Shown piece after piece: positions 6,231 through 62,496 of a stretch of 64,000 nucleotides of DNA (position 1 is its first letter; each line of letters starts with the position of its first letter). Below the pieces are notes generated by a model that made no database searches, had not been told where the DNA came from, and saw only the letters and a list, made by a program, of their open reading frames with translations. Source of the DNA: a virus; IMG/VR virus record IMGVR_UViG_3300045988_146036, positions 1 to 64,000 of that record; one strand, written 5' to 3'. The position numbers were made by a program, and so were the translations under genes.

Positions 6231-7676
6231 TTAAGACTTTTTAGCTGCATTTTTAACAGGAATTGCTCCTTTAATAGCAACATTCTTATTAACCTTTGCA
6301 TCAATGGTATTTGCGTCTGCAATAGCTTTCAAATCTACACCAGTAGCAGATTTCATGGTATCAAAAACTTGCGCCATAACAGTAGGGGTATTTCCTGCCA
6401 AAGTGCTAACATCACCATTGCCATACACTTTCATTTCCTTAATGTTGGAAAGCGGTGTTGCAATAGCCTTTGCAACTTCTGGGAGAACCTTAATAGCCAT
6501 TTCAGCCATAGCTGCCTTGCCATACTCTTTCATAGCCTCTGCTTTTTTCTGCAAAGCCTCTGCTTCTGCCAAGCCTTTTGCTTTAATAGCCTCTGCTTCT
6601 GCCAAACCTTTTAATCGAATAGCTTCTGCTTCCTTTTCAGCACTATATTTCAAAGCTTCTGCTTGTTTTTGCTGTTTAGCAAGTTCTGCCTCTGCATTTT
6701 GTTTAGTAACAAAAAGGTCTGCTTCTGCCTCTTTTTCACGGCGATACTTTTCAGCATCTGCTTGTCTGCGTACTGTTGCATCTAAGCTCTTTTCTTGTAC
6801 CTTTGCTTCCTGCTCTTGCAAAGCTACTTCTTTTTCACGCTGCGCAATTTCAGCTTCCACCATACGTGTTTTAAGAATCTTATCTTGTTCTGCTTCTTTA
6901 ATGTTGTAAGCTGCGTCTGCTTCTGCTTGCTTAATGTCTGCCTCTTGTTTAAGTTCAGACTTACGAATTGCAACTTCATTCTGTTTTTCTGCAATTTGTT
7001 TAGCACTGTTCATTTTTGCTTCATTAGCTCGTTTATCTGCTTCTGCTTGTGCAATTTGAACATCACGTTCAGCCTCTGCTTTAGCAATTTGAGCTTGCTT
7101 ACGAATTTGTGCGATATTGTCAATACCTAAATTGTTAATAGCATCACAATCATCTGTAATAGACTGAATATTGAAAGACAATACTTCAATACCAAGTTTT
7201 CCCAAATCTTCAACAGCACTGGACTGTACTTTATCAGCAAGCTTTTGGCGGTCATTTACCATTGCTTTTAATTCCATAGAACCTGCAATATCACGCAAAG
7301 AACCTTCCAAAATTTGACGTGCAGTAACTTCGATTGCATCTTCATCACGATTTAAGAAGTTGACACATGCAAGTTTAATGCTTTCAGTATCATTCTTAAT
7401 CTTTACAGTAGCAAAAGCATCCAAGTTGACGTTGATATAATCAGTTGTTGGTACAGAATCTGATGTATTAACATCAACATTTACCAAACCAAGATTAATA
7501 TAGTCAAGACGCTCCAAGAAGGGAATTTTAAAACCTGCTTTACCAATATAGATACGTGGCTCTTTAGAGAAGCCGCTTACAATACCTGCCATATCAGTAG
7601 GGATTTTAAAGTATCCCTTAGTAAAAATAATCATAAGTGCAAATAAGATAATAATTCCTGTAATAATAAGTACCAA
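6231..7676 (-). CDS. flotillin / SPFH (band-7) family membrane protein
   Basis: N-terminal TM helix, SPFH-like core (PFLERLDYINLGLVNVDVN...), and a long Ala/Glu/Lys coiled-coil with AEAEA repeats typical of flotillins; TTG start. Confidence 0.7.
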   Translation of the reverse strand: MVLIITGIIILFALMIIFTKGYFKIPTDMAGIVSGFSKEPRIYIGKAGFKIPFLERLDYINLGLVNVDVNTSDSVPTTDYINVNLDAFATVKIKNDTESIKLACVNFLNRDEDAIEVTARQILEGSLRDIAGSMELKAMVNDRQKLADKVQSSAVEDLGKLGIEVLSFNIQSITDDCDAINNLGIDNIAQIRKQAQIAKAEAERDVQIAQAEADKRANEAKMNSAKQIAEKQNEVAIRKSELKQEADIKQAEADAAYNIKEAEQDKILKTRMVEAEIAQREKEVALQEQEAKVQEKSLDATVRRQADAEKYRREKEAEADLFVTKQNAEAELAKQQKQAEALKYSAEKEAEAIRLKGLAEAEAIKAKGLAEAEALQKKAEAMKEYGKAAMAEMAIKVLPEVAKAIATPLSNIKEMKVYGNGDVSTLAGNTPTVMAQVFDTMKSATGVDLKAIADANTIDAKVNKNVAIKGAIPVKNAAKKS

Positions 7677-8699: not shown

Positions 8700-8734
8700 T
8701 CACCTATAAATAAAGCCTTTCTGAATGTGCTTTT

Positions 8735-8763
8735 ATTATAACACACCCAAAAAGGCTTGTCAA
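8735..8763 (-). promoter_or_regulatory. sigma-A type promoter TTGACA-N17-TATAAT (extended -10)
   Basis: Minus strand reads TTGACAagcctttttgggtgtgtTATAAT. Confidence 0.6.
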
Positions 8764-8769
8764 CTACTT

Positions 8770-9852
8770 TTATTCTTCTTTTAGCAAAAAAGTTGGGGAA
8801 ATCGCTTTAAAGGAAATTCCCTGCTCATAATTTCTGCAAACAATACCTTCACGCTCTTGTGTATCAAGTAATACACTTTTACCACTCGCAAGATTGTTTA
8901 AGGTCTGTAAATCACTTGGCACATTGATACGCTTATAAACTACTGGCACTGTTTTAATGCGAAATTCTTTAAGAAGCTCTTCCATTTTTACTTGTGAAAC
9001 TTTAATGCCGTCAAGAATTAAATTATAAGCATAAAAATCATACCCACTAATCTTATATTTATTAGCTTGGATATTTTGCCCAATAATCTCACCTTGTAAA
9101 ACAACTTTTCTAAAGCCAAAGCAATCTTGAATCTCCTTTAAAGCCTCCTCAATCTGAAAGCGTCTTGCAATTTCCCAATAGGGCGAATTATCTTCCTTAC
9201 GTAGCCAAATATTTCTACTGCAAACCCCAAAAGTGCCGCCGTCTAAAAAGAAAGTTGAACTGCAGCCGTCGATTTTCTCTGTACAAGTTAGCGGAACACT
9301 ATCAGAACGCCATTGTTCAAGCTTATCAGTAATATTTTGCCAGCGTTCTTCATCAGTCTTGCTTGCAATGTAAGTAGGGAACTTTTCATTCTGTACATGG
9401 AATTTTGCATATAAGCGTCTAAACCAACGGAAACGCATTAAAGGCTTCCATAAGAATGTGAATCTTCCTTTTGGGGCAGCAACTGCCATGATTTTATTCT
9501 CTGCTTCAAGTTGCGGGTCAAATTTCGTAATATTCAATACTTTAGTTACATCTTCACCAACAGCGTATTCTTTATTTGGCAAGTAACTTAAAGGCAGAAT
9601 CAAACCTTGTGAAATCTGTTTGCGCAATTTAATAGTCTTAATGCGGTACTTTCTGTCTTTAAGGAACGCAAATTCTGGTCTTGCAGGGAGTACAGAATCT
9701 ACTTCAATATACACTACTTTATCGCCTTGCTGAAAGTTGTCACTCTTACTTACAACACATTCCCAACCTTTTACAGTTGCTTTTAAAATTCTATCTGCAT
9801 TTGGAATAGGCTCTAATTTATCTATAATTTCTACACTTGCTAATTTTCTCAT
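8770..9852 (-). CDS. ATP-dependent RNA/DNA ligase, Rnl5/DraRnl-like (N-terminal OB domain plus nucleotidyltransferase)
   Basis: N-terminus MRKLASVEIIDKLEPIPNADRI (OB-like as in NgrRnl/DraRnl); motif I TEKIDGCS (KxDG); motif IV EGIV; motif V FKAISPTFLLK. Confidence 0.55.
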   Translation of the reverse strand: MRKLASVEIIDKLEPIPNADRILKATVKGWECVVSKSDNFQQGDKVVYIEVDSVLPARPEFAFLKDRKYRIKTIKLRKQISQGLILPLSYLPNKEYAVGEDVTKVLNITKFDPQLEAENKIMAVAAPKGRFTFLWKPLMRFRWFRRLYAKFHVQNEKFPTYIASKTDEERWQNITDKLEQWRSDSVPLTCTEKIDGCSSTFFLDGGTFGVCSRNIWLRKEDNSPYWEIARRFQIEEALKEIQDCFGFRKVVLQGEIIGQNIQANKYKISGYDFYAYNLILDGIKVSQVKMEELLKEFRIKTVPVVYKRINVPSDLQTLNNLASGKSVLLDTQEREGIVCRNYEQGISFKAISPTFLLKEE

Positions 9853-11741
9853 TTAACTACCTCCGCTTCTACTGTTTTTTCATCGTCTGTATCTTCCATA
9901 AAAATTCGTTCTAAAATGCCACCAGATTGGGGATTCGCACCATGAACAACAGTTTGCTCAATACTTCCACCTTTAATTTTTGTTTGTGAAACCATAACTG
10001 GTCGTCCTTTTACTTCGTCTTGCAAATCTTTTAACTTAGTTAAATACCCAAAAGCATCCTGCATTGCCTGTGAAGTAGCCTTTGTAGGTGTTCCACCCAT
10101 AGCTGTTTCAAGCATAAAGGCTTTTTGAGCACGTTCTATTGCTAAATCAGCAATAGCCGTCATTCCCTGTATAACATCTTCTTGTTCCCTGGTATTAAAT
10201 CTACGGAACATTTTATCATATGCACAAATATACCCTGCTTGGTACTCTGTACAGTTTGCTGCCATTACGCATCTATCACAAGAAAGTCTAGGTAAAGCTC
10301 TTGTGGAAAGCTTTTTCTGTCGCTTAACCTTTTTGATACCTTTTAAGATATTGCCATTTTTATCATAAATTGGTTTAATACCTTGTTCTATTAAAGCTTT
10401 TTCAACATCATCTTTATCATATCCAGAAGTTAATAATGCAGGTAGAAGTTCTCCACACTCTTCCCTACTCATTTCAACCTCTAAATACTCTTTTTCTGTA
10501 ATATAGTCCTCACGTTCAAGTGCTATACGCTGCCCCTCTTCTGGATTCTGCAAATTTGACAACTCGTTTCGCATACCGTCAACGTGTTCTTTGAAAGCTT
10601 CTTGCAAAAACTTTATACACTTATCTTTTGTATTATAGTTTGCACCTGTTGCACCAAACATTGCACATAAACCTACAAGGTCGTCAAGCTCATAGTTCTT
10701 GGCTTCTTTAGGCTCGTTTAGAAAAATATAAGCATCATGTAAAATTGTTTCACCCGCTGTTTGAGGAATGTTTGTATCAATTCCTGCTAGTTCTAAGCGT
10801 TCCTGCCAATCTTGCATATCCCCTTCAAACCATGCTGCATCTGGAATAGAGTATCTAGTGTTTGAACGTGCTTCCCAATATTTTTGTGGTCGCATAACAT
10901 TTTTAACGTATTCTTCAAACTTCTTATAGCTAATGGCGTTTGCTTTTATAAGCTCATAAGGAGATTCTATTTCAAGCAACTTCTCCTTTAACCCCAACGC
11001 CTTTAGCTTTTCCATGTATTCCGTTTTCCATTGCTGCTTTTCAAGGTGTTTCATTTGCCCTGCTTCAAAGTAGGTAATTGTACCAAATTGCGCACCTGTC
11101 AAATAAGTAGTAGAATCTGCGGAAAAGAATGGATAGCTCAATAATAGTTTATTGCCTGTAATTGCAAAACCATGAATAGCAGACTTATACCTTTTAGCTA
11201 TTTGGAATAATTGTGAAATGAGATTTTCCCTTTCCCCCATATCCTCAATAGTATGCTTTATCTCCATGTACGAAAATCCAACATATGGATGCTGTTTACA
11301 AAGCTTTTCAAAATGCGATAAATCTTTATCTAAATGATAAAGATAAATAACATTTATTCCTTCTCTTTCTAATGGATAGAAATACTTTTCACGCCAACCT
11401 TCTACAATATCCTCGCCAACAATACTATCAATATCAAGTTCCACGCAGGCAAAGATATAGTCACGATACTCACGTACAAAGTTAACATACTTTACTAAAT
11501 AATCTTCCCACCATTCAATGGTCTTATTATTAAACTCTTTATCATTAAAAAAAATATAAGCACCACTATCAATTAAGACTTTCATTCCTCTATGGGACTT
11601 TAAGCGTTTTACAATTTCATCTAATCCACGTTTACGAATATACTTATAGGAAAGTAGCACATTCTTTGTTACAGAAGATGCTACTTCCCAGTTTTCTTTA
11701 GGCTCAACGCCTGATAATAAAAGCGTAAAATCACCTTTCAT
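9849..11741 (-). CDS. tRNA-guanine transglycosylase superfamily protein, DpdA-like (candidate 7-deazaguanine DNA transglycosylase) with C-terminal extension
   Basis: VLIDSGAY matches the TGT substrate-Asp motif (L/I)(T/I)DSGG(Y/F); Cys cluster SCDRCVMAANC as a candidate Zn site; adjacent to queC. 630 aa is much larger than typical DpdA. Confidence 0.45.
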   Translation of the reverse strand: MKGDFTLLLSGVEPKENWEVASSVTKNVLLSYKYIRKRGLDEIVKRLKSHRGMKVLIDSGAYIFFNDKEFNNKTIEWWEDYLVKYVNFVREYRDYIFACVELDIDSIVGEDIVEGWREKYFYPLEREGINVIYLYHLDKDLSHFEKLCKQHPYVGFSYMEIKHTIEDMGERENLISQLFQIAKRYKSAIHGFAITGNKLLLSYPFFSADSTTYLTGAQFGTITYFEAGQMKHLEKQQWKTEYMEKLKALGLKEKLLEIESPYELIKANAISYKKFEEYVKNVMRPQKYWEARSNTRYSIPDAAWFEGDMQDWQERLELAGIDTNIPQTAGETILHDAYIFLNEPKEAKNYELDDLVGLCAMFGATGANYNTKDKCIKFLQEAFKEHVDGMRNELSNLQNPEEGQRIALEREDYITEKEYLEVEMSREECGELLPALLTSGYDKDDVEKALIEQGIKPIYDKNGNILKGIKKVKRQKKLSTRALPRLSCDRCVMAANCTEYQAGYICAYDKMFRRFNTREQEDVIQGMTAIADLAIERAQKAFMLETAMGGTPTKATSQAMQDAFGYLTKLKDLQDEVKGRPVMVSQTKIKGGSIEQTVVHGANPQSGGILERIFMEDTDDEKTVEAEVVK

Positions 11742-11743
11742 TT

Positions 11744-11968
11744 TTAATTACGCCCCCAAGGTGTGATTCCTTTTCTATTTTTAGTTTTCCAAGAAGTTCT
11801 ATTCATAAATCTATAATATGGATTCGTTTGTAAATTATTTGTGTCGCCTGTTCTTCCCTGCTTAACACTTAAAAATCCACCTTTAGTCTTTTCAACACTT
11901 CTTGCTGCAATTTTAATCTGCGGAACAGAATTTTTCTTCTCCGAATTAGATTTATTTGCCAATCTCAT
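11744..11968 (-). CDS. small basic protein (74 aa)
   Basis: Lys/Arg-rich ORF between queC and the DpdA-like gene. Confidence 0.3.
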   Translation of the reverse strand: MRLANKSNSEKKNSVPQIKIAARSVEKTKGGFLSVKQGRTGDTNNLQTNPYYRFMNRTSWKTKNRKGITPWGRN

Positions 11969-12548
11969 TCCCCTCCTTCAAAAAATAACTAGGGTACCTA
12001 TGTGCTACACGCCATTTACAATTCTCACAAACACCACAAGGCTCGCCATTATCAGAAAAGTTACATGAAAAAGTATCCTCTAATTTTACACCAAGCCTGC
12101 ATCCAATCTTGAAAACATCATCTTTTGTAAGGTCTATGAAGGGTGCTAAAACTTTAACATTTGGAAATTCAATACTTAAAAATGAATTAAGAGCATCTAA
12201 CCATTTATGTGTACAGTCTGGGTATCTAGGAAAATTCTTAATAATTCCTAAATAAATATTTAAAGACTCTCCAACATAAAGCTTTGCAATAATATCCATT
12301 ACAAATAGAGTGTTTCTGTTTGGGATGTAATCTTCACCTAATAAATGTAAGTTAAAGTGTGCTAAATAATCTACATCATTATTAAACTTTTGTGAAAGAC
12401 ATTTAAACTCGTTTAAATTATATGTGCCACCTTCAACTTTAGTATAAAGCGCATGATAAACCTTTAAATCTAAATGCTCATCTTTTTTCAGATAATCATA
12501 AAGTACGGTACTATCATACCCACCACTCATACATATAATATTAGTCAT
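11952..12548 (-). CDS. queC: 7-cyano-7-deazaguanine synthase QueC
   Basis: N-terminal PP-loop ICMSGGYDST (SGGxDS) and C-terminal zinc motif CGVCENCKWR, both QueC hallmarks. Confidence 0.7.
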   Translation of the reverse strand: MTNIICMSGGYDSTVLYDYLKKDEHLDLKVYHALYTKVEGGTYNLNEFKCLSQKFNNDVDYLAHFNLHLLGEDYIPNRNTLFVMDIIAKLYVGESLNIYLGIIKNFPRYPDCTHKWLDALNSFLSIEFPNVKVLAPFIDLTKDDVFKIGCRLGVKLEDTFSCNFSDNGEPCGVCENCKWRVAHRYPSYFLKEGNEIGK

Positions 12549-12549
12549 T

Positions 12550-12861
12550 TTATTCCTCTTTTATAATATAATATCTAAGACTTAATTCTAAGCTTTTCTT
12601 TAGAAGAAATGTATTACTGCCAAAGATAATGACTGAAATATCCCCAAAAAGCATATCTAAGTCTTTAAAATCGTCTTTAGTACACTGTACTAAATGTATA
12701 TCATTCTTACCTGCCCAATCCTTTAAAAATGGTTCTAAAATGGAGGGAATACCCCCCACGATAACGCAAGTTCCTTTAGAACCATTAAAATGAAAAGATA
12801 AAACATCTAGCACATGATAACTTGTTCCTTTAAAATTTTCAAAACTCGCGATGACGTACAT
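12550..12861 (-). CDS. hypothetical Rossmann-like protein (possible SLOG / nucleoside deoxyribosyltransferase-like)
   Basis: Likely start MYVIASF (12861); motif TCVIVGGIPS; weak family assignment. Confidence 0.3.
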   Translation of the reverse strand: MYVIASFENFKGTSYHVLDVLSFHFNGSKGTCVIVGGIPSILEPFLKDWAGKNDIHLVQCTKDDFKDLDMLFGDISVIIFGSNTFLLKKSLELSLRYYIIKEE

Positions 12862-13252
12862 TTTTATCCCTATCCTCACAAATCGGTACAACTGCTTTAT
12901 CATCAATATACACATCTGCATGGATTTTTCTTGCACGTCTTGAACCTTCCCACGATTTAAGTTCCTCTGGAAAACATTGCTTTACTTGTGGCAAATCATC
13001 ATTTACTGCATCAAAGATTAAGCCTCTATAAAGACACCAACGTAGTGCCTCTTGTAAAAACTTACCTTCCCTGCAAGTCCACAAAATAAGCTTATGCCCC
13101 CTACGTTGCAATTCCTTGCAAAATTCCGTGGCAGGAATAAACTTTCCAACTTCTGTCTTATCGAGCATAAGTGTAGAAAACTTTCGCTCTTCCCCAATGT
13201 AAGGATATTGACTATTAACCAATGTACCGTCAAAATCTATTGCATAAATCAT
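12839..13252 (-). CDS. HAD-superfamily phosphatase (probable 5'-deoxynucleotidase)
   Basis: Motif I IDFDGTL (DxDGT) immediately after the probable start MIYAIDFDGTL; downstream KIHADVYIDDK as a candidate motif IV. Confidence 0.5.
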   Translation of the reverse strand: MIYAIDFDGTLVNSQYPYIGEERKFSTLMLDKTEVGKFIPATEFCKELQRRGHKLILWTCREGKFLQEALRWCLYRGLIFDAVNDDLPQVKQCFPEELKSWEGSRRARKIHADVYIDDKAVVPICEDRDKNVRHREF

Positions 13253-13566
13253 TCTGTACACTCCACTGTACGGATACCATGCGCCCATGTATCTACAATT
13301 TCTTTAATACTATCATAGGTAATACCACCTAGGATTGTTAAAGCTGTAGAACATTCATCCTGCGCAACAGGGCATAATTTTTTATCATCCCAAGAATTAA
13401 AATGATAAAGATAGTAATAGTGCTCTTTCTCACCACCAAAAAACTCTAAAACATAAATTGGTTTACCACAAACGGGACATTTAAAATAACCAATAACTTC
13501 TTGCTCTCCCCAAGGAAACAAGATGTTCTCTTTTTCAAGATGTATAAATTCCATTGAATTACTCAT
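13249..13566 (-). CDS. hypothetical Cys-containing protein (105 aa)
   Basis: CPVCGKP motif; no QueD signature (CxxxHGH absent). Confidence 0.35.
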   Translation of the reverse strand: MSNSMEFIHLEKENILFPWGEQEVIGYFKCPVCGKPIYVLEFFGGEKEHYYYLYHFNSWDDKKLCPVAQDECSTALTILGGITYDSIKEIVDTWAHGIRTVECTE

Positions 13567-14186
13567 TGCGCAGTACCCCCTGTGATTAAATAGCTCATAG
13601 GCAACTTAGTTACACATTTGCAGAACCTCTGCCATTCTCTAGACTTGTGATGCTGTCTTTGTGCATACATCGTTTTAAGCTGCAAATAGTTTGTTGTCAT
13701 TCTTGCGGTTAAATGCAAGCCCATAGGAACATTACACATCATGGTGTCAAAATCAATCTTGCCCTCAGTGTAATCTTGAATTGCTCCAACTAAATTAAGC
13801 TTTGCTGTTTCAGTAACAGTAGTATCACACATTTTATCAATATCCATTTTTGTAAGGCAATGTACTTTACTCATTGAGCTTACGAAATCAAACCAGTGAT
13901 AACGCTGTGCCTGCTGCCACCAATATTGAGGTGCATTAACATCCATTTGCACAATAATCCCCTTTAAAAAGTTATTATGCCCAGTTCCTGCAGCCGTACT
14001 ACCAAGCTTTAAAGCTCTTCTAACATGCGCACCTGCTTCTACAGTTCCACGCATAAAAATGTCTGCTGCTACATCAGATACTCCACTTTCAAATTCTTTT
14101 TCGGTAGGAGGCTTTGAAAGCATTGGATAGCCGCTTGCATAAATAGACTCTTCCAATCCATAAAGTTTAACATTAGTAATTAGCAC
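13563..14186 (-). CDS. ThyX-like (flavin-dependent thymidylate synthase family) protein with a divergent active-site motif
   Basis: GHNNFLKGIIVQMDVNAPQYWWQQAQRYHW aligns to ThyX [29 protein letters not shown], but the RHR motif is replaced by RYHW; GTG start. Confidence 0.4.
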   Translation of the reverse strand: MLITNVKLYGLEESIYASGYPMLSKPPTEKEFESGVSDVAADIFMRGTVEAGAHVRRALKLGSTAAGTGHNNFLKGIIVQMDVNAPQYWWQQAQRYHWFDFVSSMSKVHCLTKMDIDKMCDTTVTETAKLNLVGAIQDYTEGKIDFDTMMCNVPMGLHLTARMTTNYLQLKTMYAQRQHHKSREWQRFCKCVTKLPMSYLITGGTAQ

Positions 14187-14308
14187 TTTTTAGAACCCCC
14201 GATAAATGCTTTCTGAAATTGTCTTAAATTAAAAGCTTGAAAAATAGCAGGCAATTCTCTCTTTTTAGGTTTAGTGTTCCAATTTTTAGTGTGTAATCTT
14301 TTTTGCAT
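14180..14308 (-). CDS. small ORF (42 aa, basic), translationally coupled
   Basis: GGAGA RBS, ATG at 14308-14306 placed directly after the upstream stop; its stop overlaps the GTG start of the ThyX-like gene. Confidence 0.3.
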   Translation of the reverse strand: MQKRLHTKNWNTKPKKRELPAIFQAFNLRQFQKAFIGGSKKC

Positions 14309-14310
14309 TT

Positions 14311-14709
14311 TTAAATCTCCTTTTTAAATAAATCATTAAGCACTCTAGGAACGTAGACACGCTCGCTTTGTGTTTTAACCAACGCTTTTTTCATGTTATT
14401 AGTTGTTTTGCCTAAATTTACCTTTAAATTATGTGAGCCAGAAAGAAATTCTGCCAAAGGCTGTGTAACATCTAGGAAGTCTTTATCCTCTCGTCTTTTT
14501 TTGCTAATATCACGCATTAATTGACAAATTTTAGTGCGCGTACTGCGCTCCGTAGGATAGTTCAACTCACAAAAATGTCGAATATCCCCCAAAGCGCAAT
14601 CATTCTCATGTACAGCATCATATCGGATTCTACGCTCCGCTTCAATGGCTACAATTAGGTCTTTAAAATCTTCTACAATTTTTACTACGTTTTCTTTAGT
14701 GTATTCCAT
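14311..14709 (-). CDS. hypothetical protein (132 aa)
   Basis: ORF with AAGGAGG RBS downstream of the promoter at 14731-14759. Confidence 0.4.
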   Translation of the reverse strand: MEYTKENVVKIVEDFKDLIVAIEAERRIRYDAVHENDCALGDIRHFCELNYPTERSTRTKICQLMRDISKKRREDKDFLDVTQPLAEFLSGSHNLKVNLGKTTNNMKKALVKTQSERVYVPRVLNDLFKKEI

Positions 14710-14730
14710 AGCTTACCTCCTTATGTGTAT

Positions 14731-14759
14731 ATTATAGCACACCTTAAAGGTATTGTCAA
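14731..14759 (-). promoter_or_regulatory. sigma-A type promoter TTGACA-N17-TATAAT
   Basis: Minus strand reads TTGACAatacctttaaggtgtgcTATAAT. Confidence 0.6.
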
Positions 14760-14766
14760 CACTTTT

Positions 14767-15351
14767 CTAAAGCAATTTATGTAACTTTAAACCTGCTCTT
14801 GCATTTAAACGGTTTTTGGTTAAGAAAGTTTCTATCCTTTTAAAAATGTTTAAATCGTTTTTAAAAGGATAAAGTGTAACCATAGCAGATGTTGGATACT
14901 TCTTTAAAACCTTCTTTACATAATCAAAGTCAGAATCATCTTTTATTACGAATTTAACTTCATCATTACTATGTAATAATCTTAAATTATTTAAGATATT
15001 TTCATTGGCACAGTTTATAATTACACTATAAGCATAAGTTCTGTCATATAAACAATCTTCTAAAGGGATTCTACAAGACGTTTCCATAGTTACAATATAT
15101 GAGTATGCTAACAACTCATATACAAGTGTATAACTATCTTCCTGCAAAAGCGTTTCACCTTTTATACAAACATGCCTGTTTCCTAATTTATTTACTTTTG
15201 AGAGAATTCTATCTATTGACCAATCTGTGCCTTTGGCTAAATCAATAGGCTCTTGTATAAAAGTCGTTGCATATCCTGTGTACCTGCCCTCCCCCTGTAA
15301 AGCCGAATAAATTTCACATACTTTCACTTCGCCCAAAACCTCCCCAGTCAA
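14767..15351 (-). CDS. QueE-like (7-carboxy-7-deazaguanine synthase family) protein lacking the radical-SAM Cys triad
   Basis: EIYSALQGEGRYTG matches QueE EIFxxxQGEG; KGETLLQ matches GGEPLLQ; C-terminus KFVIKDDSDFDYVKKVLKKYP matches B. subtilis QueE VVIFNDEDLEFAKTVHKRYP; but no CxxxCxxC follows the FIQ segment. Confidence 0.5.
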   Translation of the reverse strand: MTGEVLGEVKVCEIYSALQGEGRYTGYATTFIQEPIDLAKGTDWSIDRILSKVNKLGNRHVCIKGETLLQEDSYTLVYELLAYSYIVTMETSCRIPLEDCLYDRTYAYSVIINCANENILNNLRLLHSNDEVKFVIKDDSDFDYVKKVLKKYPTSAMVTLYPFKNDLNIFKRIETFLTKNRLNARAGLKLHKLL

Positions 15352-15712
15352 GCTTAACTATCCTACCGTTTTTAGTACCAAAGTTTTCCAAGGTGCTATC
15401 CTCCAATAAAAAAGCAAGCTCATCACCTGTAACTTTATTCTTAAAATAATCTCTTACTAGATTGGCGCAATCAACACTGCTTAAAGACTTAGCTAAGGGC
15501 TGCACCCTCTCCATTACATTGCACCAACCAAAAGGGAATGAAATATATAATTTAGCTAAATGCTTGCTTTTATTCCTGTATTCCCACTCCTTTAAGTTTT
15601 GCTTACGTCCGTGGTATGGAAAACGTAAGTATGGAAATTTAATAGCAAGATTTCCTATTAAAATTACATACCTTGAACCACCACGTACAGTAGTAAAAAA
15701 ATTATCGTACAT
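15314..15712 (-). CDS. hypothetical protein (132 aa)
   Basis: ORF with GGAGG RBS. Confidence 0.35.
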   Translation of the reverse strand: MYDNFFTTVRGGSRYVILIGNLAIKFPYLRFPYHGRKQNLKEWEYRNKSKHLAKLYISFPFGWCNVMERVQPLAKSLSSVDCANLVRDYFKNKVTGDELAFLLEDSTLENFGTKNGRIVKLDWGGFGRSESM

Positions 15713-20443: not shown

Positions 20444-20956
20444 TTATTTTGCATCATAATAACTATGCCCATAATCTGGGACTGCCTCCAAAGGAATTGT
20501 CAGATTTATGCCACGTTCCTGTAAACAATGTTCCATATGATATTGTAAACGCTCCATTCCAAGTTCCACGTATTTGGTTGGACACATTAAGCCTAACTCA
20601 TCGTGTACATTTAAGAATAAGTATGCACCTATTGCTTTAAGCACTGGGTCGCGGTCAACATCTAAGGTAGCAAACATTGCTACGTCCCCACCTGCACCCT
20701 GGCTCATTACATTTACCGCCACACGTTCTAAGTAGGAAGCTACTCTCTTATCACTGCTGTTAATATCCCATAAATGCCTTTTATGCCCACCAAGAGTCTT
20801 TACAAACCCATTTGACTGTGCAAAACGTATTACAGCTTTATCATAAGTATGCAAACCATAGAAACCTTCAAAATAACGGTCAATGTATTTCTGTGCTGTC
20901 TTTTGGTCTACATCCAAATTCTTACTTACTGCAACAGAAGTGCCGCCATAATCTAC
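20444..20956 (-). CDS. DNA polymerase I (family A), exon 2 (C-terminal; motif B tail and motif C)
   Basis: VDYGGTSVAVSKNLDVDQKTAQKYIDRYF aligns to Taq VLYGMSAHRLSQ...IERYF; VHDEL is motif C; the frame is open upstream of the tool start back to 20956. Confidence 0.7.
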   Translation of the reverse strand, partial: VDYGGTSVAVSKNLDVDQKTAQKYIDRYFEGFYGLHTYDKAVIRFAQSNGFVKTLGGHKRHLWDINSSDKRVASYLERVAVNVMSQGAGGDVAMFATLDVDRDPVLKAIGAYLFLNVHDELGLMCPTKYVELGMERLQYHMEHCLQERGINLTIPLEAVPDYGHSYYDAK

Positions 20957-21699
20957 CAGTCCGTTGTCCAGTATTACTACTGGTGTCAGACTATGCCTTT
21001 AGAACTCGCTGCCAGTAAAAACCATATATTTTAGTTTTATTTCTAATAGCCACTCTAATACCACTTGTATCTTTAGGAAAGTAACCAAGGCTATTTAAAA
21101 ACTTTAACACACTCTCTTTACTAACCAACGTATGTAATACATTACCATCACAATCACAAAGTAAATAGGTAACTGCATGATGCTCTTTTTGATGGCACTT
21201 CTTACATAATACTTGCAAGTTTGTATCTTCATTATTTTGCCTATTACCATCCCTATGATGTACCACTAAGTTCTTTATACTACCGCAAATCTCACATTTT
21301 GCCCCGTCAATTTTTGCCTTTAGAGGATAGCCCTTTATTCCATTCTTATAGAATGGCGAATCCTTACCTTTAGGCTGGGCATTATGTAAAAACCCACGGC
21401 TTTCACGGTCTTTAAAACGTGCATATCTTAACTTAGCTTCATATTTACAGTATACACAAAATTTTTGATTACGTCCAGTAGGAATATAATAATTCCCACA
21501 ATATTCACAAACTCTTTCTTTCATAGTTCATGTTCCCCATTAAATGTATTCGTAAGATTTATACTTAAAGTATAGCGATACATTATAAGTCGTTACACCG
21601 TCTTTTTACAAAGAAATTCGGCACGGCGTTGACCATTAAGTTATGGCAATCTTAATGGCTTTCACCGTTATGAGAGGAATTTTACTTCACCATACCTTT
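20957..21699 (-). mobile_element. group I intron (743 nt) carrying an HNH homing endonuclease, splitting the polA gene
   Basis: Exon 1 ends GGC TTC GCT (5' splice site after U, followed immediately by an in-frame stop KGMVK*); exon 2 starts GTA GAT TAT GGC after ...CTG (3' splice site after G). The predicted spliced junction KKIGFA|VDYGG restores pol I motif B. Confidence 0.65.
20991..21524 (-). CDS. HNH homing endonuclease (intron-encoded)
   Basis: N-terminal zinc ribbon CEYCG...CVYC; HNH motif LVVHHRDGNRQNN...CKKCHQKEHH. Confidence 0.75.
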   Translation of the reverse strand: MKERVCEYCGNYYIPTGRNQKFCVYCKYEAKLRYARFKDRESRGFLHNAQPKGKDSPFYKNGIKGYPLKAKIDGAKCEICGSIKNLVVHHRDGNRQNNEDTNLQVLCKKCHQKEHHAVTYLLCDCDGNVLHTLVSKESVLKFLNSLGYFPKDTSGIRVAIRNKTKIYGFYWQRVLKA

Positions 21700-23442
21700 A
21701 GCGAAGCCTATTTTTTTTGCAATTTGCCTTTTAGCAGGCTCACGCTTCTTTACATCATTCGGATTCATGTTTGCAAGCTCTGGAAAAACGATAGTTGCAA
21801 CTGTACCATGCGGGTCTAAGTTCTCTCTCAACATCTTTAAAAGCATCTTATCTTGTGACAAATGCGCCGTTAAGTATTTCTCCAAAGCATGATAATCACA
21901 AGCTATTACACTATAACCCTCATCAGCTATAAACAGCTTTCTTATTTCAAACCGTTCCCAAAAGTCAAAGTAGGTTCTATCTTCACCCGCTTTCGGCTCT
22001 TCTAGTGGGTGCGGCAGCTGCTGGAGGTTTGGGTATTGACTACTTAATCTATAAGAATCCGTGCCACAAATATTGAAGCTACAATGGACTTTACCATCAC
22101 TATAAATATTCTCCCTTAACCCTATCATAAATGCACTAATAAGTTTAGAAAGTTTTTTATAAGTTACAAGCTCTGTAATAAAATCATGTGCTTTTGCATC
22201 AACATTCTTCTGCTTTAAAAGAGCTTTTAAAATATCCCCACCTGTTTTCGGCGTTTGTAACTCTTCATAACCATATTTACCACCTGTTGTAAACTCTATT
22301 GGTTTAAAACCAAAGTTTACGTCTACTAAATTATTATTGCAAGATTCTACAAACATTACCTGTGAAGGCTCATTCATATACAAGTTTTTAAGCTTAGTTT
22401 TTTCAGTCGTAGTGTATCCAACACTTTCCATTTCAAAGGCATTTTGTGCGCTTGGAGTAAGCCTCATAACTTTCTTTTTAAAGCCAAAAAGGATTTCATA
22501 AAGATGTTGTCCACTATCGGGATTAAACTCTACCCCTGTCAAAGAAAACATTTTATATTTAGAGTTTTCTAATTCTTTCTCTGCAAGTTCCTGCATCTTA
22601 TCAAGGGCAGCAATATCTACACTTACACCTTTTCTTTCCATTTTCCAAAGTGCTTTCATAAAAGGCATACGGCACTTAATATACATATCATAAGAATCAT
22701 CTTCTCTTAGACCTTTTTCAAGCATTGGATACATTTGCTTCATAAACCAAACGTCCTCGGCTGAATACTGCGCTCCGATTGGAATTTGAACATGCTGAAA
22801 GCTTGCATTATTAGTAGCCTTTAAACCCTGTGAAAGCTTTTCTTCTTTAGTAACAGTTTTAATGGTATCACTATAATGTGACTTTTCAACTTTAAAAATC
22901 ATCTTAGTAACACTTTCAAGATTCTTTTCTACATTCTCATCTAGTGTATGCACCATTATTTGTGTATCTTGAAAAGTGTTTACATCAAAGACTTTATAAA
23001 TATCAATTCCTTCATTAGCTAGTAAATGTAAATCATAATCTTGATTATGCGCAATGTATTCTTTACCACCGCACTCCATAATAGATTTAAGTTCTGCTGC
23101 AAACTTAAAAGAGTCTACGTTATAATAAGTTCCTTCAAATTTTTCTGGACAAAAATCTAGGAACTTTTCAAGCTGTGCTTTCTTCAAGAAAGAGAATCTG
23201 CCATTATCCTCATATTTTCCCTCGAACACGTGTCTTACAGGAACATAAAAAACATCTTTAGATGTAGCATCATCAAAAGCAAATGTAAAGCCTACTGTAT
23301 AATCTTTACCCACAGCACGTACATTTAACCCGGATGTTTCAGTATCCCAAAAGACTTGTCTTGCACTTTTAAATAGATTTAAAAAGGCACTTAGAGTACC
23401 TTCTTGAACAATATTTAATTTAAAATACTTTTGGTGATACAT
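21700..23442 (-). CDS. DNA polymerase I (family A), exon 1 (3'-5' exonuclease domain through motif B start)
   Basis: Exo I motif VFWDTETSGL; ends RQIAKKIGFA (motif B RxxAKxxNFG). Confidence 0.7.
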
Positions 23443-37609: not shown

Positions 37610-38833
37610 TTACATTCCACCTTCCATTCTCCAAAACTCATCAGCACATTCCTGCACCGCGCTAAAAAACTCCCTTATATAATCGCATTGTACAAATTCT
37701 TCTTTGTTTTCTTTCTTATAGGCTATTGGACAAATTGACCTGCATAAAGGTAGACATTCACATTCTGCGCAATTTCGTGGCAATAACTTTAACCACTCCA
37801 TTTCATGTGCTTTTAATATATCTGAATAATCATCTTTAATATTTGCAACCACTTTATTATCATTGTGGCATCTTATTATATTACCTGCAAAATCTATAGA
37901 TAAAGAGATACGTCCAGGTGCGCAAGGTGGAAATGGGGAAAGCATAAAACTTTCTTTAGAGAAGTAAGTCCCTCTTCTAAGTTTAGTTTCAAACCACCTA
38001 TGTACATTTGAATCCCTTGTTTCTTTATAATATTCAAATAAATCTTTTACTGCTTTTCTTACTTCGCCCTTCTCAAAAGCGTATAAATCTTTTGGTATAT
38101 CCCATAGTACATTTATAAAACCTAGAGTTACCTCAGTATTGGGGAATTTTGACTCCAAGTATTTAAAAGCAGTTACCATATCACAATTTAAGGCATTGTA
38201 TACCCCATTTACCGTTCTTTTTTCTGCCAACAAAAAAGCTTCTATATTTCTCTCTAGCGGCATGGCGTTTCTTGCAGCTAGAGGGTTGGGTGCATCATAA
38301 CTCATAATTACCCATATATTATGTTTGTTACAAAAGTCTACAATGGAATTTGAAAGTAATAGACCATTGGTGAAAATGCGATAAGAAATATTTCTCATAC
38401 CCATTTTTTCAAACTCTTCTATAAGTTTCTTTATTGTAGTCCAATAAAGTAAAGGTTCACCACCCCAAAAATAGAGCCTACCTCCACCTGCTTTATCCCA
38501 TTTTACTATAAAGTCTAGTACATCCTTGCTTAACTCAGTAGTGGGAAAAGCAACATCACATTTAATAGGAGTTTGTGTACAATGTCTGCAAGACATATTA
38601 CATGCACTGCCTAGCATCAGATAAAGTGCTTTTACACCTTCCGTGGATACCGAATCCCCTTCACAGTGAATAACATCCCCATTAACAAATTTGTCACCCT
38701 CTTGAATGTCGACCCCTGTAATATCCACATAATCTCCATCCCCAACTAAATCTTTAAACTCTTTTAATGTATTATTTGTTATAAATTTTGCCACCAATAC
38801 ATCATCTATTAATTTTCCAATTTGTAATACCAT
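37610..38833 (-). CDS. radical SAM / SPASM-domain maturase
   Basis: CNMSCRHC (CxxxCxxC) near the N-terminal third; C-terminal SPASM-type cluster NCAECECLPLCRSICP. Confidence 0.6.
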   Translation of the reverse strand: MVLQIGKLIDDVLVAKFITNNTLKEFKDLVGDGDYVDITGVDIQEGDKFVNGDVIHCEGDSVSTEGVKALYLMLGSACNMSCRHCTQTPIKCDVAFPTTELSKDVLDFIVKWDKAGGGRLYFWGGEPLLYWTTIKKLIEEFEKMGMRNISYRIFTNGLLLSNSIVDFCNKHNIWVIMSYDAPNPLAARNAMPLERNIEAFLLAEKRTVNGVYNALNCDMVTAFKYLESKFPNTEVTLGFINVLWDIPKDLYAFEKGEVRKAVKDLFEYYKETRDSNVHRWFETKLRRGTYFSKESFMLSPFPPCAPGRISLSIDFAGNIIRCHNDNKVVANIKDDYSDILKAHEMEWLKLLPRNCAECECLPLCRSICPIAYKKENKEEFVQCDYIREFFSAVQECADEFWRMEGGM

Positions 38834-60598: not shown

Positions 60599-61408
60599 TT
60601 AAGATTTCATTATCTGCATAAATTCATCATCTGTCCACAAAAACAAATCTGTACTTTTATGTCTATTACCTTTGTTCATCTGTGCTATAAAGCAGCCAGG
60701 TACACCAACACGCATACCATGATATTTTGCATAATTAGGGTAAACTTGAAAAGTACCGCTCCATACCTCATAAACAATTCTAGGGCAGGGTGTCTTTTCA
60801 AATTTGTTATGCTCTATAATAACCTTTTCCTTTTTATAGCGTTGATGATGATGCTCTCTCCACGTAACATCCGCATTTACCCAATCCCAAACACCATCAC
60901 GTTTAGGGGATAAATGCTGAATAAAATGTACGAAACAATTCTTGCCTACATTAAAATAAAGAAAGCAAAACTCTTCTTTATAAATGTCGGGCTTGCCTAT
61001 TAAAGTAGCTAACATCTTCTCTGGAGTAAAATAAACATCATGCTTCAATCTTCCCGCCCAATGATTACCCTCTATAATATAGAGGATTCTATCTGCATAG
61101 GGCTTTAAAATCTCAGCTAATTGGTATACTTGGTCGTCGCCAACACTCCACTCTTCATGTAGGTCACTCTTACTTAATTTAGTTGCGCCGTTACCTGCAT
61201 CACCACCAATTCCCACGTATAGATTAGGAATACTCATTAAATACTTAAATGTTTTCTCGAAAAGTTCTTTATTACATAAACCCCAATGTATGTCGCCTAA
61301 ATTTACAAAGTAGGCGACATCTGCTTCTGTTCTAAAACGCACGATATGCTTTTTTAAATCTTGGTAAATATAATCTTCTTTTGCTTTCATATATTCTCCC
61401 ATAAGCAC
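60599..61408 (-). CDS. calcineurin-like metallophosphoesterase (third)
   Basis: NLGDIHWG...GGDAGNG...GNHW motifs. Confidence 0.55.
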   Translation of the reverse strand: MLMGEYMKAKEDYIYQDLKKHIVRFRTEADVAYFVNLGDIHWGLCNKELFEKTFKYLMSIPNLYVGIGGDAGNGATKLSKSDLHEEWSVGDDQVYQLAEILKPYADRILYIIEGNHWAGRLKHDVYFTPEKMLATLIGKPDIYKEEFCFLYFNVGKNCFVHFIQHLSPKRDGVWDWVNADVTWREHHHQRYKKEKVIIEHNKFEKTPCPRIVYEVWSGTFQVYPNYAKYHGMRVGVPGCFIAQMNKGNRHKSTDLFLWTDDEFMQIMKS

Positions 61409-62496
61409 TCTTTAGTGTCTTTATTAAATCTAAATTCCTTAACCCTTGGGTGTCGCAGACTCTTAGTATTTTGATTTATAACTTCTTGGTATTCTACCTC
61501 TACAACAATGTCGAACATTTTAGAAGTATGTGTCTTAATAAACTCTTGGTCTGCATCACTAAAACCTTTAGCGGTGGTTACATAAGTAAGTTCTCCATTC
61601 TTATAAGCACCTAACTTCAAGCCTGCGACCCAACCCTTTGCATAGGTTTTAGTTACAGGTTCATCACCTTCCCAATACTGCCAACCACGAACGCGCAGCT
61701 CATCAACTGTAAATTTTCCAGTATACTTCTTTATCGGTGGTTCAAACCCCATTACAACTAAGTCCGCGGTTTTCTTCGCTTTAAATTTTAACCATTCCTT
61801 AGAACGCTTATCCTGCTTATAAATAGATGTAGGGGACTTTAAGATAAGCCCTTCACCACCACAACGTCTTATAATATCAAAGCAGTTTTTAAAAGAATCT
61901 ACTAATATTAGATTCTTTCCTATCTTTGCAGCAAGTCTATTATCCAAAAGATTGTATAATTCCTTCTTAAAATAGAACCTTGTAACCTCGTAACAGCTAT
62001 TTAGTACATAATCACCCATTTTAGTAAGATAATCTTCTAAGAGCATAAGAAATGAAATGCGCGTTAATAAAGGTTCTTTCTCTAGGTCAAGCCCTTGGAA
62101 CTTAATTACATCAAAAATCTTGTATTGTAATCTAGTACCTTGTTCCCATAATTCTTCTGCTCTTTCTGGTGTAGAACCCAACAACTGCTGCACCTTTGAA
62201 GAGTTTGTGTTACCGCCTTGCATTACAAGCTCACCATCAAAAATGCTATCTTTAAAGTCTGAAAATGGAAACGCACACATCTTTTTAAGCCTGTCTGTAT
62301 TATCTTCTTTTTCACCAGTGACTTTACTTGTACGTCTACTGTAAAAATGAACAAAACCTTGTTGGTCAACATACATTATTGCTCTATGTCCATCAAATTT
62401 TTCCTGTGCTAAAAAGTTAGGACTCTCTAAGGCATCCATATCCCCCTCTGCACAAAGCATAGGTGCAATGTTTGGATTGATACAACTATTTAGCAA
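61387..62496 (-). CDS. ATP-dependent DNA ligase
   Basis: Motif I EKFDGHRAIMY (KxDGxR), motif IV GGEGLILK, motif V WLKFK. Confidence 0.7.
   Translation of the reverse strand: MLNSCINPNIAPMLCAEGDMDALESPNFLAQEKFDGHRAIMYVDQQGFVHFYSRRTSKVTGEKEDNTDRLKKMCAFPFSDFKDSIFDGELVMQGGNTNSSKVQQLLGSTPERAEELWEQGTRLQYKIFDVIKFQGLDLEKEPLLTRISFLMLLEDYLTKMGDYVLNSCYEVTRFYFKKELYNLLDNRLAAKIGKNLILVDSFKNCFDIIRRCGGEGLILKSPTSIYKQDKRSKEWLKFKAKKTADLVVMGFEPPIKKYTGKFTVDELRVRGWQYWEGDEPVTKTYAKGWVAGLKLGAYKNGELTYVTTAKGFSDADQEFIKTHTSKMFDIVVEVEYQEVINQNTKSLRHPRVKEFRFNKDTKECLWENI

Follow-up and report, generated by a model that had tools for sequence, protein, structure and literature searches.

The minus-strand genes between positions 8,770 and 15,351 of the window (the whole stretch of 64,000 nucleotides that was analysed) raise the question of whether this phage replaces guanine in its own DNA, and with which base and from which precursor. 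The window belongs to a tailed phage genome of ~96-99 kb. The whole cluster lies on the minus strand, the six genes named in the earlier note are minus-strand ORFs with exactly the limits given there, and the E-values of their family matches are far beyond chance. The cluster is a simplified version of an already known phage anti-restriction system and depends on the host. Judging from its gene content, it is probably a working system which, after replication, would replace the guanine of phage DNA by a 7-deazaguanine; the likeliest candidates for this base are preQ0 (dPreQ0) and the amide ADG. The proposal of combined purine and pyrimidine modification is partly supported: an atypical 7-deazaguanine DNA-modification module is present (QueC and DpdA, with a degenerate QueE and without FolE and QueD), and the pyrimidine part does not stand (see below). 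The phage comes from the gut, and the sole hint of its host is a TnpB in a sister genome, with 87% identity to a Mitsuokella copy.

The gene at 9849..11741 (minus strand) encodes a long-form DpdA, a DNA-guanine transglycosylase (phrog_887, 2.5e-65). It has full-length similarity, at 33% identity, to BCD7 gp021, listed as DpdA by Hutinet 2019, and in the comparison with the DpdA of phage 9g (hhalign E 1.9e-15) the DSGA, HGF and DS(T/S)W motifs align. Pfam and NCBIfam models give no recognition, and the PADLOC TGT and DpdA models fail to match. The N-terminus forms a TIM barrel with D58, D103 and D209, all three invariant in 17-18 homologues, and the C-terminal helical domain has an invariant Cys4 motif (aa 488-506); no confident location was found for the structural Zn site. 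The LIDSGA motif that had been reported is present (aa 56-61), but its Asp aligns with the general acid/base Asp (Asp95 of Salmonella DpdA) and is not the base-recognition residue, which is D103 in ELDID (Asp roles taken from PMC10164549). The dN/dS of DpdA is 0.03-0.05; here and below, it was measured at two divergence levels, dS 0.16 and dS above 1.

A QueC/TGT pair could also act on something other than DNA, either placing deazaguanine on protein, as Cap9/Cap10 do, or draining 7-carboxy-7-deazaguanine (CDG) against type IV CBASS/Qat, with the Cys-less QueE as a ligand sponge. Type IV CBASS likewise combines a minimal QueC (roughly 185-200 aa) with a TGT-fold protein, and Cap10 is the second-best structural neighbour of the phage DpdA. 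However, the bacterial DpdA structure 7UI4 scores above Cap10, homologous phage DpdAs were genetically shown to modify DNA, the CD-NTase and QatB partners are absent, and the lack of PADLOC matches also speaks against this extremely improbable reading. Cap10 has no Zn site, and what it binds is the N-terminus of a protein; the phage protein retains the phage-DpdA sequence signature.

QueC had been called correctly. The gene (11952..12548, minus strand) encodes a short QueC-family PP-loop ATPase of 198 aa (PF06508, 1.3e-23) that matches the PADLOC QueC model over its full length (1.4e-20), with SGGYDS at aa 8-13 and CNFSDNGEPCGVCENC at aa 162-177. It carries four of the five signature motifs defined in PMC13082051, namely SGGYDS, PNRN, YPDC and Cx8CxxCxxC. 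The fifth, YxQxHxxE, which holds an essential Tyr and a conserved Gln and His, is degenerate, with the Tyr retained and the Gln, His and Glu lost. The dN/dS of the gene is 0.10-0.20, and the protein is predicted to convert CDG via ADG into preQ0. Alternatively, DpdA might use CDG or ADG instead of preQ0, if the divergent QueC stopped at the amide, worked on DNA-borne CDG or coupled CDG to another amine; the DNA would then contain dADG, dCDG or some new 7-amido derivative. We regard this as unlikely. In its favor, the degeneracy of YxQxHxxE extends across the clade of the window and its relatives L022 and L024, unlike in BCD7-like QueCs, which retain YGQ; the QueC-fold proteins Cap9 and QatC divert adenylated CDG to different amines, and DpdA subfamilies shift their substrate range (PMC10516641). 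On the other hand, the PNRN, YPDC and Zn motifs required for preQ0 formation are retained, and Pfam, NCBIfam and phrog searches gave no extra amidotransferase and no QueF, DpdL, DpdM or DpdN homologue.

Upstream of the other cluster genes, at 14767..15351 (minus strand, true start likely GTG at 15327), lies a QueE-derived protein without the radical-SAM machinery. It matches TIGR04349 at 5.9e-23, with 81.7 bits versus a cut-off of 300, and Radical_SAM was not matched in the Pfam search. That this QueE is degenerate had been noted before, and alignment A1 confirms it in detail: a 13-aa deletion takes out the CxxxCxxC cluster, FIR has become FIQ, TGGEP has become K-GET, and there is a further deletion at MDIKCPSSG; the protein thus has neither the SAM-binding GGE motif nor Arg27. 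The R27A variant of EcQueE is catalytically dead (PMC11142719). Judged by its sequence, the phage homologue is catalytically dead yet conserved under purifying selection, with a dN/dS of 0.105 and 0.104 at the two divergence levels.

Since, of the three steps leading to CDG, two are absent or dead, the cluster could be a decaying relic, its pathway lost with QueD and the inactivation of QueE and its other genes on their way out. This is very unlikely, given that every gene has stayed intact in each of three diverged lineages (the window, an IMG/VR relative and L019-L021), that dN/dS stays at 0.03-0.2 at both divergence levels, and that the catalytic Asp residues, the Zn motif and the PP-loop motif are kept. 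Selection would instead keep the QueE-derived protein for a non-catalytic role. As a guess, it may bind a ligand, or pair with a host QueE of the B. subtilis type to pass CDG to QueC-DpdA. Cys-less copies of QueE have at least two origins, and the second such clade sits immediately 3' of a genuine B. subtilis-type QueE. By analogy only, QTRT2, the eukaryotic TGT subunit, is a precedent for an inactive Q-pathway fold, and E. coli QueE R27A, which keeps divisome binding, for an activity-independent role of a Q-pathway protein. The recurrent QueE pseudoenzyme is the sole new element here.

The reported absence of FolE and QueD holds for the window and, beyond it, for the other ~32 kb of a genome with 91-96% identity, searched with phmmer, family HMMs and stop-to-stop translations (best E-values 0.08 and 0.24). 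Syntenic relatives that are more distant retain QueD together with an intact QueE; QueD is present in L022, L024, L025 and L029. In the window, the QueD slot is reduced to a 43-nt gap between SpoVS and a 132-aa ORF, X (15314..15712, minus strand), which overlaps the start of the QueE-like gene and corresponds to the conserved gene separating QueD and QueE in relatives. Its homologues hold the same position (82% identity in L020, 54% in L022, 50% in L024) and its dN/dS is 0.04-0.09; searches in Pfam, NCBIfam, PADLOC and PDB gave zero matches. Putative kinase-like motifs (AIK, DxxxxN, DWG) were spotted in it by eye.

With neither FolE nor QueD and only a dead QueE of its own, the phage must draw CDG or preQ0 from the queuosine pathway of the host. 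There are precedents both for phages that obtain 7-deazaguanine precursors from their hosts and for the channelling of QueC product to DpdA (PMC6884629). The de novo pathway is missing from some gut Firmicutes (PMC6884629), and a host without it would deprive the phage QueC of substrate. As a CDG-making host normally has QueC too, retention of the phage enzyme would have to be explained by channelling or flux. Phages that carry DpdA alone or a partial pathway (group 3 of Hutinet 2019; Mycobacterium phage Bipper) likewise use host-made precursors; in contrast to them, this phage retains QueC and a selected, inactive QueE, a combination not described in the literature on DpdA/deazaguanine systems examined.

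In the mechanism we propose, the short QueC would adenylate host-derived CDG, followed by amidation or dehydration. DpdA would then insert the QueC product into double-stranded phage DNA in place of guanine by the TGT double-displacement mechanism, in which D209 would be the nucleophile, D58 the acid/base and D103 the residue that recognises the base, and the modified DNA would be protected from restriction. Among the closest known systems are those of BCD7 (gp021-gp028), Enterobacteria phage 9g and Escherichia phage CAjan, in which a homologous DpdA is co-clustered with QueC and a QueE homologue; the BCD7 type was catalogued in 2019 as DpdA plus preQ0 pathway (Hutinet 2019). The expected outcome is identical, a post-replicative exchange of G for 7-deazaguanine against restriction. 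Whereas those phages have the full FolE-QueD-QueE-QueC set, this one differs in its missing or dead precursor genes, in its 198-aa QueC with the degenerate motif and in an RNA ligase (Rnl5) immediately after DpdA. Compared with the bacterial Dpd system of Salmonella Montevideo (PDB 7UI4), the DpdB ATPase, DpdC and the restriction half (DpdD-K) are absent, and the phage DpdA, at 13% identity, adds a ~300-aa C-terminal extension containing the Cys4 motif.

A promoter-like site (TTGACA, 17 nt, TG-TATAAT; 14731..14759, minus strand), defined by consensus match only (12/12), precedes a nine-gene run from 14709 to 8770: orf132a, the ThyX-fold gene, orf105, HAD, orf128, QueC, orf74, DpdA and Rnl5. 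This sigma-70-type promoter would drive the nine genes, and a terminator-like hairpin of 19 pairs (8713..8758, minus strand; pattern match only) would end the unit. All small ORFs are on the minus strand. The first gene, orf132a (14311..14709; phrog_2717), is conserved in L020 (70%) and in L024 (48%), there immediately 3' of QueE. The gene orf105 (13249..13566), with a CxxC pair, is confined to the window clade, and orf128 (12550..12936, start likely ATG at 12861) has 69% identity in L020 and weak similarity to L024. Throughout this lineage, the small, very basic orf74 (11744..11968) separates QueC from DpdA (79% identity in L020, 51% in L022, a 77-aa equivalent in L024), with a dN/dS of 0.05-0.07. 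The term "island" used earlier is misleading, as the genes are vertically inherited and syntenic, part of the replication/nucleotide module of the lineage.

The remaining enzymes, i.e., the ThyX-fold protein, the HAD phosphatase and Rnl5, are co-transcribed neighbours of nucleotide and nucleic-acid metabolism, not demonstrated parts of the pathway. The first (13563..14186, minus strand; 207 aa) had been called ThyX-like, which is true of its fold and not of its motif. It matches phrog_6721 only; sequence searches of Pfam and PDB gave no match, and hhalign profile-profile comparison gave no significant hit. In its AF2 model (pLDDT 93.5), the top Foldseek matches are all ThyX (E 5.6e-7, TM 0.6-0.69, probability 1.0), a fold shared with PF02511 (T. 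maritima 1O26, H. pylori 3AH5). Equivalents of ThyX His53, Arg78 and Arg174 are conserved, whereas RHRxxxxxxxSxRY is replaced by QRYHxxDxxSSxSKxH; because of this replacement and the missing Pfam/profile match, FAD and dUMP contacts are not assured. As a further ThyX likeness, a sister phage has the gene as the target of a group I intron. The family has 1072 unannotated members, mostly occurring without DpdA; in unrelated phages the gene adjoins dNMP kinase, NT5C and NrdD/G, and DpdA is missing from the neighbourhood. The hydroxymethylases of T-even or SPO1-type phages also adjoin dNMP kinase and NT5C. That resemblance of setting, the altered signature (RHR...SxRY to RYH...SSxSKxH), which could conceivably go with a different substrate or chemistry, and co-transcription with the phosphatase would suit the production of a modified pyrimidine nucleotide by the two enzymes, besides the deazaguanine. 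Such dual hypermodification is quite unlikely, a non-thymine product being without positive evidence: the gene fills the canonical ThyX slot of L022 and is the sole thymidylate-synthase-fold gene of the genome, which fits plain thymidylate synthesis. Because it fills this slot and sits in DpdA-free dNTP-synthesis modules, the gene is not part of the deazaguanine system; its product is a nucleotide-metabolism enzyme that is not Dpd-specific, and its contexts agree with an ordinary role, or at least one independent of Dpd.

The gene at 12839..13288 (minus strand) encodes a small, BT0820-like HAD-type phosphatase with a DFDGT motif (NF046079, 1.5e-28, 99.8 bits versus a cut-off of 165; phrog_1238, 5.7e-23), kept within the cluster in L024 (44%) and L025 (39%). 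The phosphatase assignment stands; the 5'-nucleotidase activity ascribed to it is not demonstrated. Finally, the extra ligase is real, as an RNA ligase besides a separate ATP-dependent DNA ligase (61387-62496). The gene (8770..9852, minus strand) encodes an Rnl5 (DraRnl/PHA02142)-type ATP-dependent RNA ligase (phrog_968, 1.2e-65) with KIDG at aa 193-196, sharing with Deinococcus DRB0094 and Naegleria NgrRnl the OB domain (PF21189, 5e-29) and the KxDG nucleotidyltransferase (PF09414, 9e-22). It differs from them in scoring slightly below the TIGR02306 equivalog cut-off (148.7 versus 151.15 bits) and in its place beside DpdA, whose stop overlaps its start (ATGA) and which it directly adjoins in L020, L022 and L024 as well.

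This locus belongs to the DpdA/preQ0 class of phage systems, and within it to the long-DpdA type known from Bacillus phage BCD7. The earlier note was right to read it as a deazaguanine system of atypical composition, and overstated its novelty. Each gene proposed there corresponds, limits included, to an ORF. The Rnl, QueC, HAD and QueE-like genes are backed by profile matches far beyond chance, while the DpdA- and ThyX-like proteins had no Pfam or NCBIfam hit. Four perfect matches to TTGACA-17-TGnTATAAT lie within 8.5 kb on the minus strand (16158-16130, 14759-14731, 8763-8735 and 8419-8391), all of them in intergenic gaps and on the coding strand. As consensus patterns only, the first two are 12/12 sigma-70-type matches with an extended TG. 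Together the four matches suggest a host sigma-A-dependent early or middle transcription. Terminator-like hairpins, likewise pattern matches, were found at 15753-15732 and 8758-8713. From this arrangement, orf132a (14709) to Rnl5 (8770) looks like a single transcription unit, with gene X and the QueE-like gene as an upstream pair.

The TGT-like protein of 630 aa contains a TGT-like (beta/alpha)8 barrel and matches PHROG 887 at 2.5e-65; among the curated TGT/DpdA profiles (Pfam PF01702, NCBIfam and PADLOC) no hit was obtained at E values up to 0.01. Across its whole length it shares 33% identity with gp021 of BCD7, a protein catalogued as the DpdA in a cluster of FolE, QueD, QueE and QueC (Hutinet et al. 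2019). An hhalign comparison between a profile of 17 homologues and the DpdA of Enterobacteria phage 9g gave a probability of 98.5% (E 1.9e-15) with the DSGA, HGF and DS(T/S)W motifs in register, and tblastn against the "deazaguanosine inserting enzyme" genes of 9g, CAjan-like and BASEL phages reached about 1e-7. The outcome that the earlier note named as refuting its reading, a TGT-like protein without a match to TGT or DpdA profiles, is therefore not what was observed, even though the Pfam TGT profile misses the protein. Three aspartates, D58 (LIDSGA), D103 (ELDID) and D209 (ADST), are invariant in all three alignments of DpdA homologues (A3, A4 and A5), and their motifs align with DSGAF, LDG and CDSSSW of the 9g enzyme; the equivalent residues of Salmonella DpdA have been defined as acid/base, base-recognition and nucleophile Asp, respectively (PMC10164549). 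On these grounds the protein is identified as a DpdA and is predicted to exchange guanine in DNA. Its C-terminal ~300 residues are helical, poorly modelled and hold an invariant Cx2Cx5Cx8C motif (aa 488-506), a possible candidate for the structural Zn site of TGTs, located ~280 residues past the nucleophile where pLDDT falls below 50. This C-terminal domain also gives a weak match to the small-terminase PHROG phrog_6902 (1.7e-4) at aa ~472-604 (window 10224-10450), and may serve to bind DNA. Sequence and profile searches of the PDB with DpdA returned chance matches only. The type IV CBASS proteins Cap9/Cap10 are structural neighbours, and are a poorer fit than DpdA. The locus also shows that long DpdAs of the BCD7 type, missed by every Pfam and NCBIfam model, occur in gut phages with hosts of Firmicutes type, and surveys built on such models will therefore undercount them.

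The absence of FolE and QueD claimed in the earlier note was confirmed and extended: searches with single sequences and with HMMs of both families (seven sequences for QueD, five for FolE), and over stop-to-stop translations, detected neither gene across the window and the remaining part of the sister genome (IMG/VR contig UViG_3300045988_143506). The related phage loci L022 and L024, with DpdAs 63% and 59% identical to that of the window, share the order SpoVS, QueD, X, intact QueE, intervening genes, QueC, small ORF, DpdA and Rnl5, and FolE is additionally carried by loci L025 and L029 and by BCD7 (DpdA about 33-34% identical). In the clade formed by the window, the IMG/VR contig and loci L019-L021, QueD is cleanly gone, leaving a gap of 43 nt between SpoVS and X, and QueE is present in a form without its cluster cysteines. 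Partial phage pathways are described in the literature consulted with DpdA alone or without QueC (PMC10516641, PMC6884629). The window locus differs from the known members of the class in that it would rely on the host for precursors yet retains both QueC and a QueE pseudoenzyme under selection. A natural minimal set of QueC, one small basic protein and DpdA has outlasted the loss of the precursor enzymes, an indication of what the phage is unable to obtain from the host. Since 7-deazaguanine DNA is an established phage counter-defence, one further DpdA phage would in itself be routine.

The retained QueC (11952-12548) matches PF06508 with 84.1 bits (cut-off 22), although with the C-terminal half alone matching, and scores 74.6 bits on the NCBIfam equivalog TIGR00364, below the cut-off of 150.3. 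It has the SGGYDS PP-loop (aa 8-13) and a Cx8CxxCxxC zinc motif, CNFSDNGEPCGVCENC (aa 162-177). Regarding the canonical QueC signature defined by Libby et al. 2026 (PMC13082051), the VPxRN and YPDC motifs are present as IPNRN (aa 75-79) and YPDC (aa 109-112); the E. coli enzyme does not function without the corresponding residues R99 and Y131 (PMC13082051). The YxQxHxxE motif is not found, the aligned segment reading ALYTK, in which the Tyr is kept and the Gln, His and Glu are gone. This motif is wholly missing from the QueCs of L022 and L024, and BCD7-like QueCs keep YGQ. Given that a short, divergent QueC also occurs in L022 and L024 together with intact QueD and QueE, the window protein presumably acts on 7-carboxy-7-deazaguanine (CDG), as judged from this sequence comparison, and may carry the conversion through to the nitrile.

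The QueE-like protein matches TIGR04349 at 5.9e-23 (81.7 bits against a cut-off of 300) and shares 48-50% identity with the intact phage QueEs P0006 and P0186. The earlier note had called it degenerate, and the alignment of QueE homologues (A1) specifies how. A deletion of 13 residues takes out the block with the 4Fe-4S cysteine triad, leaving zero Cys from aa 12 to aa 62, and the radical SAM model PF04055 gives no hit in this protein. In addition, FIR is changed to FIQ, with loss of Arg27, a residue whose replacement in the R27A mutant of E. coli QueE is catalytically dead (PMC11142719); TGGEP is changed to K-GET, so that one Gly of the SAM-binding GGE is gone; and the segment at MDIKCPSSG is missing. 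The loss of these four catalytic features rules the protein out as a radical-SAM enzyme. That the lesion might stem from misassembly or a spurious frameshift was considered and rejected, as it is common to relatives 75-96% identical and recovered from independent samples. The gene is under constraint: dN/dS is 0.105 when the window is compared with L020, at an amino-acid identity of 76%, and 0.104 against the IMG/VR relative (16.5 synonymous versus 7.5 non-synonymous changes, dS 0.16), values within the range of the neighbouring genes. A second radical-SAM protein of the window (37610-38833; best match PapB-like, 1.6e-18) was considered as a substitute for QueE and ruled out, as it is of the SPASM peptide-maturase type and lies in the structural region.

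When 1.84 billion representative proteins were searched exhaustively with HMMER, a second set of QueE-like proteins without the cluster cysteines was recovered (P0187, P0191, P0193, P0198 and P0212, with 33-43% identity, plus P0292), in all of which the equivalent of Arg27 is also lost. In both loci inspected (L029:9263-10564 and L030:17-1380), the Cys-less QueE of this second type is directly downstream of a genuine B. subtilis-type QueE, the latter scoring 322 and 296 bits, respectively, on TIGR03365 (cut-off 206). L029 is a complete cluster of the BCD7 kind, in which QueD, QueC, FolE and a long DpdA are all present, and L030 is a 3-kb contig showing just a QueC-containing ORF downstream. 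In a neighbour-joining tree of QueE, computed without support values, the window clade branches with intact QueEs of the L024/P0006 type and the second Cys-less clade next to the BCD7 QueE, which suggests that the cluster was lost independently at least twice. We found no description of cluster-less QueE homologues in the literature consulted. The fold is read as retained for a task independent of the cluster. As a conjecture, these proteins could have CPH4 or CDG as a ligand, or could partner a QueE of the host or the phage and so divert CDG to the phage QueC and DpdA. A Cys-less QueE would then resemble a pseudo-subunit of the QTRT2 kind, for the biosynthetic half of the pathway. The repeated conversion of a radical-SAM QueE into a conserved cluster-less protein implies that in these systems the QueE fold has a second function, hitherto unrecognised.

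The ThyX-like protein had been taken in the earlier note as a sign that pyrimidines may be modified too, and this part found no support. The protein belongs to a family of which we detected 1072 members, 0 of them with a Pfam domain. The AlphaFold model (pLDDT 93.5) recovered only ThyX among the 50 Foldseek matches listed from the PDB, with a best E value of 5.6e-7 and TM scores of up to 0.69. The equivalents of ThyX His53, Arg78 and Arg174 are retained; the ThyX motif RHRxxxxxxxSxRY is not, the sequence being QRYHWFDFVSSMSKVH (QRYH...SSxSKxH). No hit was obtained in Pfam (PF02511 included) or NCBIfam, hhalign of the family against ThyX, as a single sequence and as a 4-sequence profile, was not significant (E 0.013-0.19), and PDB sequence and profile searches gave chance matches only. 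The homology of the family to ThyX is thus a matter of predicted structure alone. At L022 a canonical ThyX with two inteins occupies the slot of this gene, and no other ThyA or ThyX was found in the genome. In unrelated phages, where DpdA is absent, family members adjoin dNMP kinase, NT5C and NrdD/NrdG, and in Anaerovirgula one lies within a phage-like region of small ORFs. In the sister phage, the gene is split at the SS|MS position of the VSS/MSKVH boundary (window 13869-13880) by a 384-nt insertion, ORF-less and stop-rich (L002:7478-7861), which matches the Rfam model Intron_gpI at 41.5 bits (E 4e-9), under the gathering threshold; the window copy is unbroken. Taken together, these observations point to an important enzyme of nucleotide metabolism that does not depend on Dpd, and the locus brings to light a large unannotated family in phage dNTP modules. 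A broader proposition would hold that Cys-less QueEs are a recurrent, selected, non-catalytic part of phage 7-deazaguanine systems with at least two origins, one clade always adjoining a genuine B. subtilis-type QueE and the other, that of the window, being without any QueE encoded by the phage. It would also hold that the motif-less ThyX-fold family, with more than 1000 members, may represent a novel type of enzyme that modifies nucleotides or forms thymidylate; we regard this combined claim as rather unlikely.

Downstream of DpdA, Rnl5 (8770-9852) has the PHA02142 OB domain (PF21189, 5.4e-29), an RNA_ligase domain (PF09414, 9.3e-22) and the adenylyltransferase KxDG motif as KIDG (aa 193-196), and scores 148.7 bits on the DraRnl equivalog TIGR02306 (cut-off 151.15). 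The stop of DpdA overlaps its start, an adjacency kept in L020, L022 and L024; in the more distant L025, RtcB and a small RNA ligase are found instead, some kilobases downstream, and BCD7 has neither. As the adjacency tracks phylogeny, it is not by itself proof of a functional link, and a role of Rnl5 in sealing nicks from base exchange is a speculation. The phage has a separate ATP-dependent DNA ligase (61387-62496; PF01068, 4e-25), and therefore both a DNA and an RNA ligase. In the IMG/VR relative, the Rnl5 ORF extends to 719 aa (L003:2694-4853) through an in-frame intein beside the active-site Lys motif (window ~9260-9276), with a LAGLIDADG_2 endonuclease (Pfam, 3.6e-28) and an Intein_splicing match (4e-12); the intein is missing from the copy in the window.

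The HAD protein carries the DxDGT nucleophile motif as DFDGT (aa 18-22) and matches NF046079 (BT0820 family) at 1.5e-28, with 99.8 bits against a cut-off of 165, and the putative phosphatase gene is kept inside the cluster out to L025. Gene X (15314-15712) sits between QueD and QueE in the relatives. Its motifs AIK, DSTLEN and DWG resemble by eye a protein-kinase core, for which profile and PDB searches gave no support and chance matches only. No Pfam or NCBIfam hit was obtained for orf74, orf105, orf128, orf132a or X. A reading of HAD, X and Rnl5 as a Pnkp-like RNA-repair cassette was set aside, as it could draw on a weak match to phrog_415 (3.4e-4) and on by-eye motifs only.

The window, with a GC content of ~35% and all genes on the minus strand, encodes terminase, portal and major head protein, a family-A DNA polymerase interrupted by an HNH gene, primase, DnaB helicase and a UvsX/RecA-like recombinase, as well as a Cas4-like nuclease, SpoVS and the DNA ligase. 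Based on this structural and replication gene content, it is part of a tailed phage genome. The two polymerase pieces lie at 21682-23442 and 20444-20917, with the HNH endonuclease gene (20991-21524) between them. A tRNA scan found zero tRNAs, Rfam over the whole window gave no match, preQ1 riboswitch included, and no intron at gathering score, and megablast against the 50,697 phage records of INPHARED found no near-identical record for the region. The closest public sequence is the sister genome (99,049 bp, 91-96% nucleotide identity), which is reversed in orientation and circularly permuted with respect to the window, and through which ~32 kb of genome beyond it were read. The scan of GTDB genomes with the DpdA alignment gave no match and hence no prophage or host clue. 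Beyond the window, the sister genome carries an IS605-type TnpB (L004:3711-4820) sharing 87% identity with one from Mitsuokella jalaludinii, a weak hint at the host, whose GC content would differ strongly from the 35% of the phage. Downstream of the operon, a Band_7 and Flot SPFH/flotillin-like protein of 481 aa is encoded (6231-7676), in the same place in L020 and L024 and missing from the sister genome. The latter also encodes beyond the window, all on the opposite strand, two PAPS-reductase/DndC-like proteins (L005:16194-17150 and L007:2792-3826), an N6/N4 DNA methylase (L007:4577-5146) and a C5 DNA methylase (L007:5979-7061), which mean additional DNA-modification capacity.
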